Part shown: positions 7,431-34,303 of the stretch, piece by piece
Layout: each line of letters starts with the position of its first letter
Position numbering within the stretch: position 1 is the stretch's first letter
DNA from: a virus
Taxonomy: Duplodnaviria > Caudoviricetes
Virus record (IMG/VR): IMGVR_UViG_3300025150_000002
Coordinates: 1-64,000 of that record
Reading direction: 5' to 3' (one strand)
DNA length: 64,000 nt
Notes under the pieces: model-generated
Seen by the model: only the letters and a program-made list of their open reading frames with translations
Database searches by the model: none
What the model was told of the DNA's origin: nothing
Translations under genes and position numbers: made by a program

Positions 7431-8864
7431 CTAGACCAGGTTCGTGATCGACACCATCGAAAAGAACTCAGGGCGCACCATCGAGATCTTGTGACGCGTG
7501 CGGATCGCACGACGCAGCGACATGTCGTTGGGGTCAACGAAGTTCGGGGTGATCTCCATCGGGATGTAGGGCGAGTAGATCACACCCGTGTCCAGGATCG
7601 ATGGACCCTGGTAACCCATCAGGATCTTGTCCTGCGGGAACACGGGATCGACGTAAATGACCCACTTTCGGTTCAGCACGCCGGCCTTGCTGATGCCGCC
7701 CTGATAGACGTGGCCCTCATCGATGGCGGAGAACCCGTCCATCGTCTCCAGCAGAGCTGCGACCTCCGAAGAGGTGATGGCCCAGTTGGCCGGCGCACGC
7801 TGGGTGCGACGGTGGATGACCTGCGAAGCGGTCGACATGCGGATCACGAGCGACTTGAGGTGCTCGGGGTCCGAGACGGCGCTCGGGGTCGCACGGTCCC
7901 AGGGAACCACGGCGGCCGACTCGACCGCGTTCAGGATGGTGCCGACGATCTCGCGATCGATCTCGGCAGTCATCTCATCAGACATCTGCGCCACGAGGTC
8001 GGCGTCGACGTCCCGGCCCCAGAGGGCGCGGAGGTCGTCGGCGGCCTCGACCGACGCCAGGCTCTTCAGCTTGCGGCTCTCGGCCTGGATCTCCTGGATG
8101 GTGATGTCGAGCTGGACTTCCGGGATCCGAGCGTTGAGCTCGTTGTTGTACCGGTAGTAGACCTCGACGGTCTCACCCAGAGCGGGGGCCGTGCCAAAGT
8201 TGAGGGTGACCGAGCCAGTCTGGTAGTTGATAGTACCAGACCCGCCAGCCATCGACCCAGCCAACGCCGTGAAGGCGCTACCAGCGTCGACACCCAGAAC
8301 CGCCGTCGAGCTCGCCGTGGTGCGGAGCTGAACGGTGCCGCCGATGACCGGGGGCCACTTCAGAGCACCGGTGAACGTCTTGGTGACGCCGTCGCCCGTT
8401 CCGAATGGCTCGCCGTCGATGAAGTTCGACGAGTACCACCGGTTGAAGTTCTTGTTCATCTCCGTGCCAGCGGTGATCTGCCCCTTGTCGGAGGCGTACC
8501 GAGGACGGTAGAACGCGATGCCGCCGATGGGGCCCGTCATCGGCTGGACCGACGCGATGCTAGTCGCGACGAGGCGAATAGCGGTGCGGCGGATCACGGG
8601 GAAGACGAACTTGAGGAAGGGCCCCACGCTTAGTGCACGGGTCTCCTCAGAGAGTCGACGCAGGTGCTTCGACTCGTTCTCCAGCATGAAAGCGCAAATC
8701 GCCTTCGTGTAATGGGCGTGGCCGGGCGGGACGAAATCGGCGATCTCGTGCTCCATCCCTTCGAGGACTGGTGCCCACTTCTGGACGTAAGCACCGACGA
8801 TGCTCTCGTCCGACAGAGCAACACCGTCCATGTTCTCTGTCATCAACTGTCGTGCCTGAAACAT
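7431..8864 (-). CDS. Major capsid protein, T4 gp23-like
   Basis: SVQPMTGP, ESRKLK, AEIDREI and YSPYIPM...RTRH motifs; AGGAGG RBS; directly downstream of the prohead protease. Confidence 0.9.
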   Translation of the reverse strand: MFQARQLMTENMDGVALSDESIVGAYVQKWAPVLEGMEHEIADFVPPGHAHYTKAICAFMLENESKHLRRLSEETRALSVGPFLKFVFPVIRRTAIRLVATSIASVQPMTGPIGGIAFYRPRYASDKGQITAGTEMNKNFNRWYSSNFIDGEPFGTGDGVTKTFTGALKWPPVIGGTVQLRTTASSTAVLGVDAGSAFTALAGSMAGGSGTINYQTGSVTLNFGTAPALGETVEVYYRYNNELNARIPEVQLDITIQEIQAESRKLKSLASVEAADDLRALWGRDVDADLVAQMSDEMTAEIDREIVGTILNAVESAAVVPWDRATPSAVSDPEHLKSLVIRMSTASQVIHRRTQRAPANWAITSSEVAALLETMDGFSAIDEGHVYQGGISKAGVLNRKWVIYVDPVFPQDKILMGYQGPSILDTGVIYSPYIPMEITPNFVDPNDMSLRRAIRTRHKISMVRPEFFSMVSITNLV

Positions 8865-8919: not shown

Positions 8920-11742
8920 CTACCGTCGCCGAGCTCCAGACCCGAGGTGCCGGATCTCTTCCATGGTGATGTCGGCGTGCTCCATGTTCGGCACCGGGGT
9001 GCCCCCACGGAGCGTGCCGCCCTCAGTCATGACCTCGCGGTCACGCCGCTCGTGATCCGCAGGGAACTCCCTGCCGTTGCCGAAGAAGCGACGAACGCGC
9101 TCCTGGGCGCCCATCTCGTCGGCGCTCCAATCGGCGGCCTCGGCGATTTGGTTGATGCGCTTCTTGCCGCGCACCTCACCGCGCTCGATGCTGGTCAGGA
9201 TCTCGGACCGCCGAGGGTGACCAGCCAGACGCGTGGCCGCGTAGGACTGGCTCTCCAGCTGCTCTGCGATCTGGGCCGCGCGCTCCAACTGCTCGGACAT
9301 GATGCTGTTACGCTCTGCGAGCTGAGCGATAGTGCGATCCTTGCTGGCGAGGCCCTCCTCCAGCCGCTCAGTCAGCCGAGCGACCTGAGCTCGGAGCTCC
9401 TCGTCCTTCTCCTGCAGCTTCGAGGCCCGCTGCTGAGCGATCTCGGCCTTTCGCTGTTCGAGCTTGATCGCCTGACTCTCCTCGGAGGCGACGAGCTTCT
9501 TGGCCTCTTCGAGGGATCTGTCCGCCGAAGAGAGCGCCGACTCAACCTTGTGCTGGAGCTCCTCGACCGTGCTCAGCAGAGTGACGTCGCCGATCATCTC
9601 GCGGATCGATTCGGCGTCAGGCCGCTCTGAGAGCTTCTTCTCGACGTAGAGGCGGAAGCCGAGGCTCCGGGCCGCATCATTCGCCTCGGCGACCTGACGC
9701 TCCCCGGATTCGATCTTCTGCTCCAGCTTCTTGATGCTCTGCTCCAGCTTCTGGATCACACCGTCCTTGGTGTCCATCAGCTGCTTGACGTCGACAGGAG
9801 GCTTGAAGGGGACCACGATCCGAGCGATCTGCTCCAGGGCCAGCTTGGCTCCGGCAACCTCGGGGTCGGCAGCCATCTCCGACCGGACCACAGACTCGAC
9901 GTCCTTGCGGATGTCGGCGGTGGCGCGGACCAGCTTGGCCGCGAAGTCCTCCTTGAGCTCCTTGACCACGACTGGATAGAGCTCGGACTTGAACTGCTCG
10001 CGTAGCTCCTCACGGCTGGCGGCAAGGGCCTTCTCGACGTCCTGCTCCATCTCGACGCGCATCGCCTCAGTGGCGGTCTCAGAGGCGACATCGCAGGCTG
10101 ACTCGACGATCGACCGAACAGCGTCTGGGAACCGAACGCGAAGATCGTCTGCAGTCACCTGCTCCGCGAGGCCGTCATCGGACTCAGAGAAGAACTTGGG
10201 GTAGGCGGTGCTGACAGCCGGGTCGAGCACGAAGTCGAAGGCCACAAGACGAAAGTCCTCGCCAACTACTTCCTGGCCGGACTCGTGATGCGGGCGGGTT
10301 GAACCGAGTCCACGGCTGGAGACACCAACTGCGCCTCCGGCGCGCAGGATTGCAGCCAGGTTGCGGCCGTGATCCGTGTCCTCGATGATCTGGAACTTGC
10401 CCCAGATGGTGCCGTCAGACTCGATGCGCAGGCCGCGAATGATCGCGCCCGTGTCGCGGATACGGCTGTTGTGGTTGACGGTGTAGTCCCCAAGAAGGAA
10501 ACGACCATCACCATCAAGCTCGAAGCCGTAATACTCGCCCTCGCCGATGGCGGTGACGGTGAAGCCAGTCCGAGTCGCGTCCTTCTTCTGCTGACGAGGA
10601 TCAGCCTTCTTACGCTCCAGGCGAGTCGGGATCTGGTCCACAGATCCAGCGATGGTGAGCGTGTAGTAGTCCTCCGTGTATCCCTTCACCTTGCGGGTGG
10701 AGAGCACAGCCTGAAGCCCGAGCGACTTGGCAATTCGGTGGGCCGCCTCGGCGTAATCCGGGCGCTTCTGCGTGAGGTAGAAGCAGTTGTGCTGAAGGTG
10801 GCCGTCGGTGTCGATCAAGCCAGCGAGGAACTGAAGACGAGTCTCGCGGCTGCCACGTAGGATCTGGTCGGGGACTCGCAGGTCAGGTCCGACGAGGTCA
10901 CGAACAGCACGGAGTAGACGATTGTCCTGACCCCGCTCAGCGGTCAGGTAGACCGTTACTGCCTCGGTTCCAGTGGTCTTTCCTACCTCGTTGGTCTTGA
11001 TCTCCCAGCGCGCGGCGATCTCCTCACACATCTCCTTGATCTCAGGATCGATGGTGGTGATCGCCACGCTGCGCAGAACGTCTGCATCGCCCGTGCTCTT
11101 GGAGCCGTCGCCGAACCAGGCGCCCAGGAAGTAGGGGTCGACCGCAGGTGCCTCAAGCTCGTTCTCGAACTTCTCGACACCCACACTGAACATCTTGTAG
11201 CGGCTCTGGAAGTAGACTCCCTTCTCAGTCCACTCCTTGACGTTGATGTCAACCACCTCGCCCGTCGAGGTGTGGACCACCGACAGGATGTGAGCGTCGT
11301 TGCAGACCCACGGATCGCCCTTCATCGGGTCGATCCGGTAGAGAGGACCGGTTCCAGAAGTAGTCGAAACTACGGTTCGCGCCCGACCGTCAGGGCCCAT
11401 GAGCCGGTCGCCAGTGACGATCTGCTCAACGGGAAGGACACGACCATCGGCCAGAAGAACGGGAGTTCCCTTGCCGAGACACTTTCCGTCACCCGGATGG
11501 TCAACCGCCGCATAGAGAGAGCTCTCGTTGATACGGGCCTGCAGGCGATCCAGCTCGCGGCCCATGATCTTGGTCGGGTAGATGCGCCCGTTGGCCGTCG
11601 GCGTGTCGCAGTGGCCGATCTTGCCCTCGGCGAAGAGCTTCTTGTCGGACCCGTTCTCGGACTCAACAATGCTCGCTGTGAGCCTCGCCACGCCCTGGTT
11701 GTCGATCAGGACACGCCGTTCGGTGATCAGTGCGGTCGACAT
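8920..11742 (-). CDS. Prohead protease (T4 gp21-like) fused to a scaffold-like coiled coil; contains an intein
   Basis: NGRIYP, catalytic-triad-like DHP / VSSRGLGS / FDFVLDPA, then a long E/K/A-rich helical C-terminus. About 602 aa after splicing. AAGGAG RBS. Confidence 0.88.
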   Translation of the reverse strand: MSTALITERRVLIDNQGVARLTASIVESENGSDKKLFAEGKIGHCDTPTANGRIYPTKIMGRELDRLQARINESSLYAAVDHPGDGKCLGKGTPVLLADGRVLPVEQIVTGDRLMGPDGRARTVVSTTSGTGPLYRIDPMKGDPWVCNDAHILSVVHTSTGEVVDINVKEWTEKGVYFQSRYKMFSVGVEKFENELEAPAVDPYFLGAWFGDGSKSTGDADVLRSVAITTIDPEIKEMCEEIAARWEIKTNEVGKTTGTEAVTVYLTAERGQDNRLLRAVRDLVGPDLRVPDQILRGSRETRLQFLAGLIDTDGHLQHNCFYLTQKRPDYAEAAHRIAKSLGLQAVLSTRKVKGYTEDYYTLTIAGSVDQIPTRLERKKADPRQQKKDATRTGFTVTAIGEGEYYGFELDGDGRFLLGDYTVNHNSRIRDTGAIIRGLRIESDGTIWGKFQIIEDTDHGRNLAAILRAGGAVGVSSRGLGSTRPHHESGQEVVGEDFRLVAFDFVLDPAVSTAYPKFFSESDDGLAEQVTADDLRVRFPDAVRSIVESACDVASETATEAMRVEMEQDVEKALAASREELREQFKSELYPVVVKELKEDFAAKLVRATADIRKDVESVVRSEMAADPEVAGAKLALEQIARIVVPFKPPVDVKQLMDTKDGVIQKLEQSIKKLEQKIESGERQVAEANDAARSLGFRLYVEKKLSERPDAESIREMIGDVTLLSTVEELQHKVESALSSADRSLEEAKKLVASEESQAIKLEQRKAEIAQQRASKLQEKDEELRAQVARLTERLEEGLASKDRTIAQLAERNSIMSEQLERAAQIAEQLESQSYAATRLAGHPRRSEILTSIERGEVRGKKRINQIAEAADWSADEMGAQERVRRFFGNGREFPADHERRDREVMTEGGTLRGGTPVPNMEHADITMEEIRHLGSGARRR
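10468..11481 (-). mobile_element. LAGLIDADG intein in the prohead protease (338 aa)
   Basis: DHPGDGK|CLGKGTPVLLADG...CNDAH...FLGAWFGDG...FLAGLIDTDG...FLLGDYTVNHN|SRIR. Confidence 0.92.
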
Positions 11743-11764
11743 GTATGCTCCTTGTTCACTTATC

Positions 11765-11833
11765 GTGGAGCCGGGAGTCGAACCCGGTCCGACTAGTTGT
11801 TAGGCCAGCCTGCTCGCCGTCGAGCATCTCCAC
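11765..11833 (-). ncRNA. tRNA-like cloverleaf, non-canonical
   Basis: GUGGAG/CUCCAC acceptor stem; UGCUCG-ACGG-CGAGCA arm; GGCUGG-CCUAACAA-CUAGUC arm with an 8-nt loop; perfect T arm CCGGG-UUCGACU-CCCGG; no encoded CCA. Confidence 0.65.
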
Positions 11834-11871
11834 AAACCTTTGCCAGCCCATCACTAGGCTAGCATCACTTG

Positions 11872-12864
11872 CTACAGCTGCGCGAGGCCCCGCTTGAGGT
11901 CACGGGACAGGCTGTTCAGGTCCTCGATCGCGTCGTCCACGTCGGTGTTCGAGCGCTCCGAGATCGCACGGAGGAGCAGACGGGCATCAGCGGCGACGCC
12001 CTCGAAGTACTTGCCGAGACGGACACGGGGGTGATCCGAGCCGACCTTCTCGCGTGACTCGCGGAGCTCAGCAGCCAGACCGTGGGCAACCTCCTCGGAG
12101 GTGTCACGAATGGCCTCGAAACCCTCGATGATCTTGTTGCCGAGAGTCTGCATCTCGTCCTCAGACTCGGTCTGCTGGGTCAGAGCCTTGAGCTCACCCA
12201 CCAGGTTGGTCAGCGACTCGGCCTTCTCGCTGGGGCGCGGGGAGGCGTCGTGGTAGCGCCAGCCCTTGAGCTTGCGCATCGCACAGGTGCCGTCGACCTT
12301 CTCGTTCGGGTTGTTCTCGGCATCGCCGGCCCACGAGGGGTTGGCGCCACCAGGGAGCTCATCTGGGTCGTGATCGGGCTCCAGAGAGAGGTACTTGCCC
12401 TGGGTCTCGATGATGAAGGACATCGCGTTGACGACGGTCTTGTAGTCGTCCTCGGACAGCTTCTCGTTGCGCTCGTTCAGTGCGTAGTACTGCTTGACCA
12501 CATCCCAGGCTGACTCGTAGGCCGCCATCTCCTCATCACCACCCATGTCGTAGGTCGAGGGGGCGAAGTCCTTCTCGTCCTCTCCGCCGGAGATCGGGGC
12601 GCCCTTCGACGGGAAGGGAGGCGACTTCGGGGCTGGTGCGGGAGGGGCCGAAGATGCACCTGGAGCGGCGGGGGCGGCAGGCGGCGGACCTCCGGGGGCC
12701 TCATCGCCATCCGGCTCAGCGTGGCCCATACCCTGTGCCATGCTGGGGTCCGGCTCCATGTCGTCGCCCATCTCGTTGAGGCGGCGCTGACCCTTCGTAG
12801 CCCGGACAAGACCGAGCGTCTGAAGGTCTTCCATCAGTGATGTGGTTGGCTTCTGATCGTACAT
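11872..12864 (-). CDS. Hypothetical head-associated protein with a Pro/Ala-rich linker
   Basis: 330-aa ORF co-oriented upstream of the protease; many L-x-E sites. Confidence 0.65.
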   Translation of the reverse strand: MYDQKPTTSLMEDLQTLGLVRATKGQRRLNEMGDDMEPDPSMAQGMGHAEPDGDEAPGGPPPAAPAAPGASSAPPAPAPKSPPFPSKGAPISGGEDEKDFAPSTYDMGGDEEMAAYESAWDVVKQYYALNERNEKLSEDDYKTVVNAMSFIIETQGKYLSLEPDHDPDELPGGANPSWAGDAENNPNEKVDGTCAMRKLKGWRYHDASPRPSEKAESLTNLVGELKALTQQTESEDEMQTLGNKIIEGFEAIRDTSEEVAHGLAAELRESREKVGSDHPRVRLGKYFEGVAADARLLLRAISERSNTDVDDAIEDLNSLSRDLKRGLAQL

Positions 12865-13712: not shown

Positions 13713-13967
13713 CAATTGCTCCGTGTAGTCCCGGTTCTAAAACCAAGTGATGCTGAGGGCAAGAGCCATTTTCACAAGGGATAGATGTATCCGGCCAGAA
13801 TCGAGCAAGTAAGCCGTCGTTGGCGCTCCTAAAAGACGTTTCTGATATCGGAAATGGGCTGGATGCTACACAACTAGCACACTTATGGTTTTTTACTGGA
13901 CCGAAGTGATGTGAGTCGGATAGACTCGTGATGCGGTGGTGATTCCGACAGACTCATTCGGGAAAGG

Positions 13968-13984
13968 TGATCAACGGTTGATCA
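13968..13984. promoter_or_regulatory. Perfect inverted repeat, candidate operator
   Basis: TGATCAAC-G-GTTGATCA, 36 nt upstream of the RHH gene in the divergent head/tail intergenic region. Confidence 0.35.
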
Positions 13985-14020
13985 GACTCGTCCCTTTCGG
14001 GAGGTCTCACGTTGGAGGCA

Positions 14021-14530
14021 ATGATTCAAACAATGGCATCAGACAACGTTCGCCTCAACTACACCATCTCCGAACAGATCGACGAGCAGCTGTCCAGTTA
14101 TTGCGAGATCACTGGTCGCACCGCGTCTGATCTGGTTAGGCAACTAGTCAGTGAGGTCCTGGAGGACGACCGTCCTCTACCGCCTCCAGCGGAGATCGAC
14201 GCTTTTCTTCGCAATGGGGACCGACGCGAACGCCGTACGGACATGTGGATGTCGGCGCGGTATCTGTCTGCGCTGGACACCAAGCTGGAGGACGAGGGCT
14301 ACTCGGGAAAAAGCGGCGTGATCGCCTACCTGCTCCACGATTTCCTGAACGCACGCGGGAACCACGCAGGGACTGAGATGGTCCGCATTACCACGTTCGT
14401 AGATCGCCTCACCTATGTGTATCTGATGGAAGAAGCGTCCAAACAAATGACCTCCTTGGAGGAAGTCATCGCCTCTCTATGCAAGGAGGCCGTTATCCCA
14501 GGCGGCCACCCAACCCGTCTGAACGGCTAA
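14021..14530 (+). CDS. Tandem ribbon-helix-helix (CopG-like) DNA-binding protein
   Basis: Three RHH-like units (VRLNYTISEQIDEQL..., RRTDMWMSARYL..., VRITTFVDRLTY...). GGAGG RBS just before ATG 14021. Confidence 0.65.
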   Translation: MIQTMASDNVRLNYTISEQIDEQLSSYCEITGRTASDLVRQLVSEVLEDDRPLPPPAEIDAFLRNGDRRERRTDMWMSARYLSALDTKLEDEGYSGKSGVIAYLLHDFLNARGNHAGTEMVRITTFVDRLTYVYLMEEASKQMTSLEEVIASLCKEAVIPGGHPTRLNG

Positions 14531-32947: not shown

Positions 32948-33528
32948 TGAGACACATCATCTGGCTAAAGGCCGACGGGTCTATTGGTGGGTTTCACATC
33001 ATCACCGGAGGATGGGCCCCAGACTTCGACCCGAATGATCTAACCGAGTCCAACACACAGGCCAAGTTCGTTCGGGATCACCACGCAGCTAACCCGAGCA
33101 ACGGGTTCCACTCGTTCTTCGAGTACGAGTGCCCGTGCAGTCCATCTGCAGGATTCTGCGACTGCCCTAACAACACGTGCGCAAACTGCCATGTCGACGG
33201 GGGCCTGCTCAAGATCAAGCCCACGCTATCGTTGCTGCTCACCAACCAGGTGGTAGGAGCTACCTCCGAGATAGCACCTCTCGTGCTGGCTGCAGGAGCC
33301 GAAGTCCCAATCAAGTTCACTGGCTCCCTCCCAGACACTACAGTGGTGTCTGTCGACCGAGTCGGCGGACCTGATAGCTTCGAGACGCTGCCGACGACGT
33401 TCACTTTTGGTGGTAACGAGACCCCAGAGCAGACCTTTTTGGTCCCGGCCAAGGGCCAGATCAGTGTGTTCAGGATAGATGCGGGCAAATACGTGCGGCC
33501 TAGGATCGTAGTCGTGAAGGGCTGGTAG
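32947..33528 (+). CDS. Cys-rich hypothetical protein, possible fibre assembly factor
   Basis: TAATG overlap with the fibre gene (ATG 32947); CPCSPSAGFCDCPNNTCANCH. Confidence 0.5.
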   Translation: MRHIIWLKADGSIGGFHIITGGWAPDFDPNDLTESNTQAKFVRDHHAANPSNGFHSFFEYECPCSPSAGFCDCPNNTCANCHVDGGLLKIKPTLSLLLTNQVVGATSEIAPLVLAAGAEVPIKFTGSLPDTTVVSVDRVGGPDSFETLPTTFTFGGNETPEQTFLVPAKGQISVFRIDAGKYVRPRIVVVKGW

Positions 33529-33532
33529 CCTG

Positions 33533-34303
33533 TTGTTCTACAGATGTCTCTACGAGCGTCGGTACACATCGGTCGACCTAACAAACGCTTACTCCGGCAC
33601 GCCTGTCTTCATTATCGGAGGAAACCCGAGCCTGAAGACCCTGCCATTGGACCGGCTGGAGTCTTCCAGGCTTCCTACACTAGCGCTCAACAATGCGCTA
33701 TACGTTTACCCAAACCCGACGATGTGGCTCACTGCGGACCGCCCACTCTGCTACGGAGGGCACTTCTTCGCACGCCCGGATATCACCAAGTTCGCCTACA
33801 TGAACTACCGGGACGAGGTGGTCCAGGCGACGGGTAGAGCGCTCAAAGACCACCCAATGATGTTGTTCTACACGGCGTCGGAAGGAGAGATCACCTCTGG
33901 GTTCTTCGAGGACAAACCGGCCTTCACCTGGTGTAAATCGGTCTTCCCGTTGGCATTGCAACTTGCGTGGAGGGCCGGCGCTCGACGCGTCTACTTGGTG
34001 GGTTGCTCGTTTCTGACCAATGGTCAGGTTCCGTACGCATGGGGTGCTCGTCTTACACCCCCACAAGTCACATGGAGCCAGTTGACCTACGATGACGACA
34101 TCAATCGTCTAAGACGGTTGCGGCCCATCTTCGATGCCCATGGATTCGAGATAGTCAGCTGTACGCCGAACAGCAGGGCGAACGAGATCTTTCCGCTGGT
34201 TGACCTAGCATCTGCAATCGCCGTCGAGTTGGCTAGGCTTCCTCAGCCAACGCCGGTTAGCGAGTTGATACACAGCTCAGAGACTAGACTTCCAGGACTT
34301 TGA
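33533..34303 (+). CDS. Maf/DUF115-like glycosyltransferase-fold protein
   Basis: VFIIGGNPSL...LALNNA and RVYLVGCSF match the Maf / sialyltransferase-like Rossmann pattern. Confidence 0.55.
   Translation: MFYRCLYERRYTSVDLTNAYSGTPVFIIGGNPSLKTLPLDRLESSRLPTLALNNALYVYPNPTMWLTADRPLCYGGHFFARPDITKFAYMNYRDEVVQATGRALKDHPMMLFYTASEGEITSGFFEDKPAFTWCKSVFPLALQLAWRAGARRVYLVGCSFLTNGQVPYAWGARLTPPQVTWSQLTYDDDINRLRRLRPIFDAHGFEIVSCTPNSRANEIFPLVDLASAIAVELARLPQPTPVSELIHSSETRLPGL

Follow-up and report, generated by a model that had tools for sequence, protein, structure and literature searches.

Why a transfer RNA (tRNA)-like cloverleaf should lie immediately before the ribosome-binding site of a prohead protease gene is the question raised by the DNA analyzed here, a window of 64,000 nt at the start of one virus contig, which has a length of 203,521 bp and a G+C content of 58% (IMG/VR record IMGVR_UViG_3300025150_000002). 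The phage is T4-like. The element occupies positions 11763..11834 of the minus strand, where it comprises 71 nt plus the discriminator A11763, and it is supported by the sequence itself, by ARAGORN, Rfam and RNAfold, and by covariation in 22 sequences. These sequences constitute a new family of structured RNAs with 22 members, which is supported by covariation and absent from Rfam.

In the window copy, all parts of which are on the minus strand, the acceptor stem is formed by 11834-11828 with 11770-11764 (7 bp, including U1.G72). Next come the D arm (11825-11812), whose loop is ACGG, an 'anticodon' arm (11810-11791) with a 6-bp stem containing two G.U pairs and an 8-nt loop, CCUAACAA (11804-11797), and the T arm CCGGG-UUCGACU-CCCGG, which is perfect and has the loop UUCGACU (11787-11771). 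CCA is not encoded; the element ends in A73-U74-A-A instead, U74 being the first base of an A/U-rich single-stranded trailer (11754..11762) that separates it from the Shine-Dalgarno sequence AAGGAG of the protease gene (11748..11753), 10 nt past the discriminator. On the 5' side, a hairpin with the arms UGCUAGCC and GGCUGGCA (11841..11864, 8-10 bp) ends 6 nt before the element. A preliminary description of the locus, made from the letters of the DNA, had given this minus-strand cloverleaf with exactly the sequence found here, together with a perfect T arm, an 8-nt anticodon loop, the lack of an encoded CCA, a 3' end about 10 nt from AAGGAG and a hairpin just 5' (11864-11841), and all of these were borne out.

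Detectors of known RNAs recognized the element only partly. ARAGORN reported tRNA-???(aa) at 11762-11835. The Rfam tRNA model (RF00005) scored 22.7 bits (E 0.015, in a 301-nt search with relaxed thresholds), below its gathering score of 29, and its alignment covers the element end to end with insertions in the anticodon stem and loop. No Rfam family matched the window at gathering thresholds in this check, which the preliminary description had proposed. For the element, ARAGORN found no transfer-messenger RNA (tmRNA), and the permuted tmRNA model of Rfam reached 10.1 bits versus 47; yjdF gave no match up to E = 10, and mascRNA-menRNA (RF01684) matched the 17 nt of the T arm alone with 13.3 bits versus a gathering score of 42.5. 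The minimum-energy structure of the intergenic region predicted by RNAfold consists of the 5' hairpin and a four-arm cloverleaf (z = -2.57). A second copy was found neither in the 203-kb genome nor in a relative of 135 kb; the element occurs once, and invariably at this gene junction.

Relatives were gathered with the 330-amino-acid (aa) protein encoded upstream of the element as anchor, a procedure that is blind to the RNA. A large protein collection yielded 55 homologues of this protein with 33-77% identity, and syntenic DNA was taken from IMG/VR, from Joint Genome Institute (JGI) metagenomes and from look-ups of exact proteins, with duplicates removed. The comparative set consists of this phage and 21 further distinct intergenic regions, each from the 330-aa homologue to the S77 protease, and thus of 22 sequences. 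The tRNA-like element was found in 21/21 syntenic regions, in the same place and with a length of 50-74 nt, and in 22/22 it lies between two co-oriented open reading frames (ORFs). Relatives that bear it extend to anchor identities of 58% (L024, L028) and 46% (L025), and it is absent from three more distant relatives (34-44%). One of the latter, L019, carries at the same junction a hairpin resembling an intrinsic terminator with a U tail (L019:3490-3530), which makes the junction a transcript boundary in the wider group. In L021 (about 960-1000) a plain GC-rich hairpin was observed to replace the tRNA-like module; the anchor identity of both L019 and L021 is 34%.

A covariance model, R1, was built from the family. 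It scored the members with 50-79 bits, the reduced copy in L025 with 32, and ordinary tRNAs in unrelated contigs with at most 37. Since the alignment is fitted to R1, checks without the model were added. Within the alignment, standard pairs occupy 98.2% of the cells, compared to 28-48% when the partners are slid, and changes on both sides of a pair occur in 18 of the 21 pairs (acceptor stem 7/7, D stem 3/4, anticodon stem 4/5, T stem 4/5); none of 500 shuffles reached the observed values of pairing and covariation. Independently of the model, a rule demanding a perfect 5-bp T stem around a YYRA loop and a fully paired 7-nt acceptor was matched by 21/22 sequences, and unconstrained RNAfold returned the cloverleaf in 20/22. 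Thus the cloverleaf first noticed in this phage is real, and the comparison of syntenic regions that had been suggested as a check revealed it, with compensatory changes, in 21 further sequences. The structure is under strong selection and far beyond chance.

Single positions are conserved as well. The T loop begins with UUCRA and G53-C61 is kept in 22/22. GG is located within the D loop in 21/22 and closes the loop in 19; the earlier statement that the D loop lacks GG was wrong, also for this phage, in which ACGG contains it. The 6-bp D stem described before does occur here, and here alone, the stem conserved in the family being 4 bp. At the 5' end U-1 is found in 19/22 and U+1 in 20/22, the latter paired with G or A at position 72. 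At the 3' end A73 and U74 are each present in 21/22, the next bases are mostly A-A, and no member encodes CCA. Across the family, 5-17 nt separate the element from the Shine-Dalgarno sequence of the protease gene.

A decaying tRNA pseudogene or a functionless chance fold would account for the sub-threshold score and the aberrant anticodon loop. It would leave unexplained the compensatory changes in four helices of 22 sequences and the invariance of the nucleotides that make tertiary contacts; the flanking protein has meanwhile diverged down to 46% identity, a distance over which a neutral relic would have lost its pairing. We regard this explanation as very improbable.

The decoding end of the molecule shows a different picture. 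Across the family the 'anticodon' loop varies in length from 3 to 11 nt and has no common sequence or triplet; other members have CCUCAACAA, CAAAA, UCCAAC, CCACCA, CCCCAAAA, one 11-nt loop or, in some cases, a tetraloop (GUCA, GCGA, GUAA, GUGA). Anticodon stems range from 4 to about 11 bp, and in L025 the anticodon arm is entirely absent. The variable region measures 1-4 nt and the linker between acceptor and D stem 0-2 nt. ARAGORN called 3/22 sequences only, each with a different 'anticodon' ('(aa)', Phe(aaa) and Gly(acc)), and none of the 21 copies searched with Rfam (the window and 20 relatives) reached the tRNA threshold. Compared with a canonical tRNA, the cloverleaf with its 7-bp acceptor and 5-bp T stem and the elbow nucleotides are in place, and the score and the anticodon loop (7 nt, U33, a conserved anticodon) deviate.

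These data bear directly on a decoding tRNA with an expanded anticodon loop, a quadruplet/frameshift tRNA or a nonsense suppressor, which the preliminary description had considered on account of the CUA and UAAC in the loop. The 8-nt loop of the window copy does contain both motifs and ARAGORN does report a tRNA, but neither CUA nor UAAC is conserved, the loops share no anticodon and include several tetraloops, one copy is armless, the three ARAGORN calls disagree, and no searched copy reached the Rfam threshold. No complementarity was visible between CCUAACAA and the terminase gap region of the same genome. The variability of the loop together with the missing arm in L025 rules out a decoding, suppressor or quadruplet tRNA, to which we give next to no probability. 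Judged by its comparative anatomy, the element is not a decoding tRNA, and the earlier view that it is no ordinary one is upheld by the unconserved loops, the armless copy, the sub-threshold Rfam scores and the conflicting ARAGORN calls.

The exact complement of the 8-nt loop (UUGUUAGG) was observed on the minus strand at 33166-33173 and 33577-33584, 411 nt apart. Including the element's own site, there are three 8-mer matches on both strands versus 0.53 expected. As the loop is unconserved, these are probably due to chance or to a repeat.

The hairpin in front of the element is a constant companion. A stable hairpin (-7 to -37 kcal/mol) is found in 22/22 sequences, ending 1-6 nt before the element. 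In the 15 members that can be aligned here it is paired in 94% of the cells and four pairs show compensatory change; in the three most divergent members, L025, L028 and L024, its sequence bears no relation to that of the others, and it overlaps or directly adjoins the stop codon of the upstream gene. The order of the module is therefore constant, with stop codon, hairpin, tRNA mimic, A/U-rich trailer and ribosome-binding site.

At the foot of the hairpin lies a UGAUG motif (11863..11867, minus strand) that is invariant in the 15 aligned relatives and of which GAUG is present in 19/22. Of the 19 relatives with GAUG, 18 carry it 1-3 codons past the upstream stop, and in L032 it is located further downstream. 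It begins a mini-ORF of 1-5 codons (MLA*, MLT*, MSA* or M*; here AUG CUA GCC UAG, 11865-11854), whose stop codon differs by phage (UAG, UGA or UAA). In most cases the AUG shares the reading frame of the upstream gene, and the 5' arm of the hairpin supplies the codons. The hairpin could be opened by the mini-ORF acting as a reinitiation or start-stop device, the motif could belong to a U-turn loop, or both could simply be inherited.

Two ideas about base-pairing within the module were tried and rejected. Arms of the hairpin and of the anticodon stem share GGCUGGC/CUAG in many members and change jointly in L010, and a switch by pairing between them was considered. The pattern is not consistent across members: covariation fails in L020, L013 points to another partner, and nothing is shared in L014, L015 and L027. 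The CUAG core is palindromic. Sequestration of the Shine-Dalgarno sequence by the 3' strand of the acceptor stem (CUCC) is not conserved, several members having CAUC or CACC.

If the element does not decode, its function has to be sought in its shape. The reading that we favor, and to which we assign about an even chance, is that a domesticated tRNA without decoding function is kept as a tRNA-shaped processing signal in the head-gene transcript. An RNase P/Z (ribonuclease P and Z) signal had been among the options of the preliminary description, and it is the best anatomical fit (acceptor-T stack, elbow, U-1, A73, U74 and 5' hairpin), although cleavage itself is only inferred. What selection preserves is the acceptor-T stack of 12 bp together with the elbow and the bases flanking the expected cleavage sites, and not the decoding end, a pattern that fits a punctuation mark.

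In the proposed course of events, the minus-strand head operon (genes for a 282-aa and the 330-aa protein, the protease and the major capsid protein) would be transcribed across the intergenic region, and the RNA would take on an L-shape with the acceptor and T stems coaxially stacked and an elbow of D-loop GG and T loop. Host RNase P would then cleave between U-1 and U+1 (between 11835 and 11834). The upstream mRNA would end in the stable hairpin plus 1-6 nt and should withstand 3' exonucleases, the hairpin being its proposed 3'-end protector after cleavage. The protease-capsid mRNA might retain the tRNA-like element as a base-paired 5' end. Alternatively, a second cut might be made by RNase Z after A73 (between 11763 and 11762) or by RNase E in the A/U-rich trailer, which would leave a short leader carrying the ribosome-binding site; positions 11754-11762 are a candidate zone for RNase Z or RNase E and for the 5' end of the protease mRNA. 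As an outcome, decay and translation of the two operon halves would be uncoupled. Co-transcription and each of the cleavage steps are predictions.

Several properties of the 3' end agree with such a course. The only other tRNA that ARAGORN found genome-wide is a genuine tRNA-Ser(UGA) of the phage (genome positions 193585-193669), which likewise lacks an encoded CCA and has U as first base of its trailer, so the host must trim CCA-less precursors and add CCA. Bacterial RNase Z is reported to prefer U at position 74 (Pellegrini et al. 2003). Precursors that lack CCA are cleaved by this enzyme directly behind the discriminator base, and CCA inhibits it strongly (PMC7479834).

Some observations weigh against a processing signal. 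RNase P and RNase Z do not need the anticodon stem, and yet it is kept with covariation in 21/22 sequences, which suggests that the complete L-shape is needed or simply that folding has to be robust. In L014, L015, L022, L023 and L027 the hairpin abuts the acceptor stem; the resulting 1-nt leader could hinder binding of the RNase P protein and resembles a coaxially stacked architecture. The conserved A73-U74-A-A could also have another meaning, for example as part of an unidentified late promoter. Finally, tRNA-like leaders upstream of a Shine-Dalgarno sequence raised translation 2-6.3-fold in a purified system in which no cleavage took place (PMC9142559). The same anatomy would thus fit a role other than processing.

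Such a role, the main alternative, would be that of a cis-acting leader, in which the L-shape, whether or not the RNA 5' of it is trimmed off, stays on the protease-capsid mRNA and boosts initiation by docking to the ribosome and/or shields the 5' end against 5'-end-dependent decay. This would explain why selection acts on the whole L-shape, with its GG/T-loop elbow and an anticodon helix whose sequence is free, and why the element lies so close to the ribosome-binding site. The downstream products, the protease-scaffold region and the major capsid protein, are required in many copies, as is well established for T4. There is also a precedent, because tRNAs and the yjdF aptamer act in this way, with an effect that requires the Gs of the elbow and hardly depends on the 3' ACCA (PMC9142559). 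However, RNase P should cut a structure so close to a tRNA at its 5' side anyway, so that a leader of this kind overlaps with the processing signal and does not replace it. It leaves the universal hairpin just 5' and the conserved U-1 and A73/U74 unexplained, and it sits poorly with the three-fold variation in Shine-Dalgarno spacing and the lack of an Rfam yjdF match. Removal of the acceptor stem cost yjdF only 25% of its effect, while here 7/7 acceptor pairs covary. We consider the leader reading unlikely; the two roles could coexist in the living cell.

A function in trans has also been considered. Here the element would be excised like a tRNA, probably receive a CCA tail, accumulate late in infection and titrate or mislead a factor of the host that recognizes the acceptor end or elbow, possibly a tRNA-directed toxin or defense nuclease, a modification enzyme or a sensor of uncharged tRNA. 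Acceptor stem, A73, elbow and T loop show the conservation seen in substrates of tRNA-binding proteins, and drift of the anticodon is expected where decoding is irrelevant. Non-coding tRNA-like RNAs that are released by RNase P/Z exist elsewhere, among them mascRNA and the viral tRNA-like RNAs (vtRNAs) of gammaherpesviruses, and a stable t-element RNA is found in plant mitochondria (PMC1920247). On the other hand, there is one copy per genome, which lies inside an operon 10 nt from a ribosome-binding site and neither in a tRNA cluster nor behind a promoter of its own. Its position beside the protease gene is fixed across about 50% protein divergence, which argues for a role in cis. No partner is evident, and no recognizable CCA-adding enzyme, RNase Z-like metallo-beta-lactamase or RNA ligase of the phage was found. 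Of the decoys envisaged in the preliminary description, those for anticodon nucleases are excluded by the variable loop; one aimed at enzymes recognizing the acceptor end or the elbow is conceivable. Taken together, a released mimic is improbable in our estimation. A dual-purpose device, tRNA decoy and punctuation mark at once, can be envisaged too: excised, tailed with CCA by the host and soaking up an acceptor- or elbow-reading toxin or sensor during assembly, it would set the ratio of head proteins through the cut that releases it. This would be a device not described for any phage, and on present evidence it must be called quite improbable.

The surroundings of the element are those of a T4-type head module. 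Along the minus strand, a divergent promoter region (about 13716-14030) is followed by the 282-aa gene, the 330-aa gene, the intergenic region of 129 nt, the protease gene and the capsid gene. The 330-aa protein (11872..12864, minus strand), which served as synteny anchor, is an acidic, proline-rich head-module protein. Neither it nor the 282-aa protein belongs to a Pfam or PHROG family, the Atlas leads for both being weak and derived from low-confidence models, and no relative of the 330-aa protein was found in GTDB representative genomes. The flanking genes are co-oriented, and no sigma-70-like promoter or terminator was found in the 129-nt gap, although phage late promoters may differ; the T4-type late promoter TATAAATA does not occur anywhere in the window. 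The prohead protease (8920..11742, minus strand, ATG at 11742) is of the S77 (gp21) type and has 940 aa, with a Hint and LAGLIDADG intein inside. Pfam hits of the intein lie at residues 88-176 and 290-367 of the ORF and the insertion spans roughly residues 86-420; orthologues in all relatives examined have about 590-606 aa, which makes the intein specific to this phage. The major capsid gene (7431-8864, minus strand) is of the gp23 type (Pfam Gp23, E 7e-59).

DNA of the phage is present mainly in groundwater and aquifer metagenomes and also in hot-spring and sediment samples; no RNA data set appeared among the sequencing runs listed for it. It has no nucleotide match among cultured or deposited phages, and the closest major capsid protein is 34.5% identical. 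The contig encoding P0009, a protein 73% identical to the 330-aa protein, is labeled in one source as a metagenome-assembled genome (MAG) of Nitrospira sp., which may reflect a mis-binned phage contig or be a weak hint at the host.

Fragments resembling the element were observed at other places. Outside the window, on the minus strand at G000:C1:151807-151858 (L034:1501-1552), 17 nt are identical to the T arm of the element (CCGGGUUCGACUCCCGG). A long hairpin lies in front of this stretch and CGCUCUUUU behind it; it is located between two plus-strand ORFs and scores 19 bits with R1; it may be a terminator made from the 3' half of a tRNA or a second, far more degenerate tRNA-like relic. In GTDB, the T-arm/acceptor 3' sequence matched tRNA-Ser(GCU) genes of the ordinary kind from Saprospiraceae/Haliscomenobacter, as well as small elements within tRNA arrays of betaproteobacteria, matches that carry no information on host or origin. 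In Piscinibacter and betaproteobacterial MAG contigs, tRNA-like mini-elements of about 52 nt were observed (L046:417-468, L052:5238-5290 and L054:4426-4478, minus strand). They consist of an acceptor stem, a short hairpin and a T arm that is perfect, the D arm being absent. Each is found in a tRNA array, at a distance of 4-6 nt from ordinary tRNA genes; they are not called by ARAGORN and resemble the reduced form in L025.

Phage tRNA genes are usually viewed as helpers in codon usage or as replacements for tRNAs destroyed by host defenses. In this family the tRNA shape is kept over tens of percent of protein divergence while the anticodon dissolves, and therefore the function must lie in the shape itself. 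Should this be a processing signal, the logic of tRNA punctuation and t-elements would extend from organelles and eukaryotic long non-coding RNAs to bacteriophage operons, in the form of a compact and portable module of hairpin, tRNA mimic and ribosome-binding site for setting protein ratios in an operon. No description of a tRNA-mimic element of this kind in a bacteriophage was found in the literature searches made. Tools that search for tRNAs mostly miss the members of the family or mis-call them as tRNA-Phe or tRNA-Gly, which matters for the annotation of metagenomic phages.

Compared with known systems, the element shares the cloverleaf, the T loop, the D-loop GG, the lack of CCA and a trailer beginning with U with canonical phage tRNAs such as the phage's own tRNA-Ser(UGA). 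It differs from them in having no conserved 7-nt anticodon loop, a score below the Rfam threshold, a variable region of 1-4 nt, an acceptor-D linker of 0-2 nt and a location inside a protein-coding operon. Transfer RNAs also set mRNA ends in polycistronic transcripts, through RNase P and 3' endonucleases, in mitochondrial tRNA punctuation and in the thrU-tyrU-glyT-thrT-tufB operon of E. coli. Those tRNAs decode, whereas the phage mark has lost decoding and is apparently kept only as a signal. In the mascRNA/MEN-beta modules of MALAT1 and NEAT1, RNase P cuts at the 5' side of a tRNA-like structure and the upstream RNA gains its mature 3' end. These modules resemble the phage element in being tRNA-like parts of a long transcript with an adjacent protecting structure (a triple helix there, a hairpin here), and the tRNA-like RNA of mascRNA has a reduced anticodon arm; unlike the phage element, which has a coding downstream product and is not a member of RF01684, they belong to eukaryotic nuclear long non-coding RNAs. 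With the yjdF riboswitch and synthetic cis-tRNA leaders the element has the elbow GG in common, which in the yjdF work was required while the 3' CCA was dispensable (Trachman et al. 2022, PMC9142559). In contrast to the phage element, yjdF is gated by a ligand through a purine-rich J1/2 pocket and has an off-state in which the T loop pairs with the ribosome-binding site (PMC9142559); the phage element is intercistronic instead of a promoter-proximal leader and has no conserved anti-Shine-Dalgarno pairing, acceptor pair 6:67 varying between A-U, U-A and G-U.

By analogy, the element appears to work most like a t-element. In plant mitochondria, RNase Z and RNase P produce mRNA 5' and 3' ends that coincide with the ends of t-elements (Forner et al. 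2007, PMC1920247), and the excised RNA can bear a non-templated C or CCA (PMC1920247). Both kinds of element are non-canonical cloverleaves derived from tRNAs, with a conserved T arm, a location beside coding regions and no decoding role, and GGTTCGACTCC of the window fits GGTTCRANYCC, the motif used to find t-elements in plants (PMC1920247). They differ in that one belongs to an organelle and the other to a bacteriophage, with no sequence relationship between them. The phage element is furthermore always preceded by a dedicated hairpin and followed, at a distance of about 10-20 nt at most, by a ribosome-binding site.

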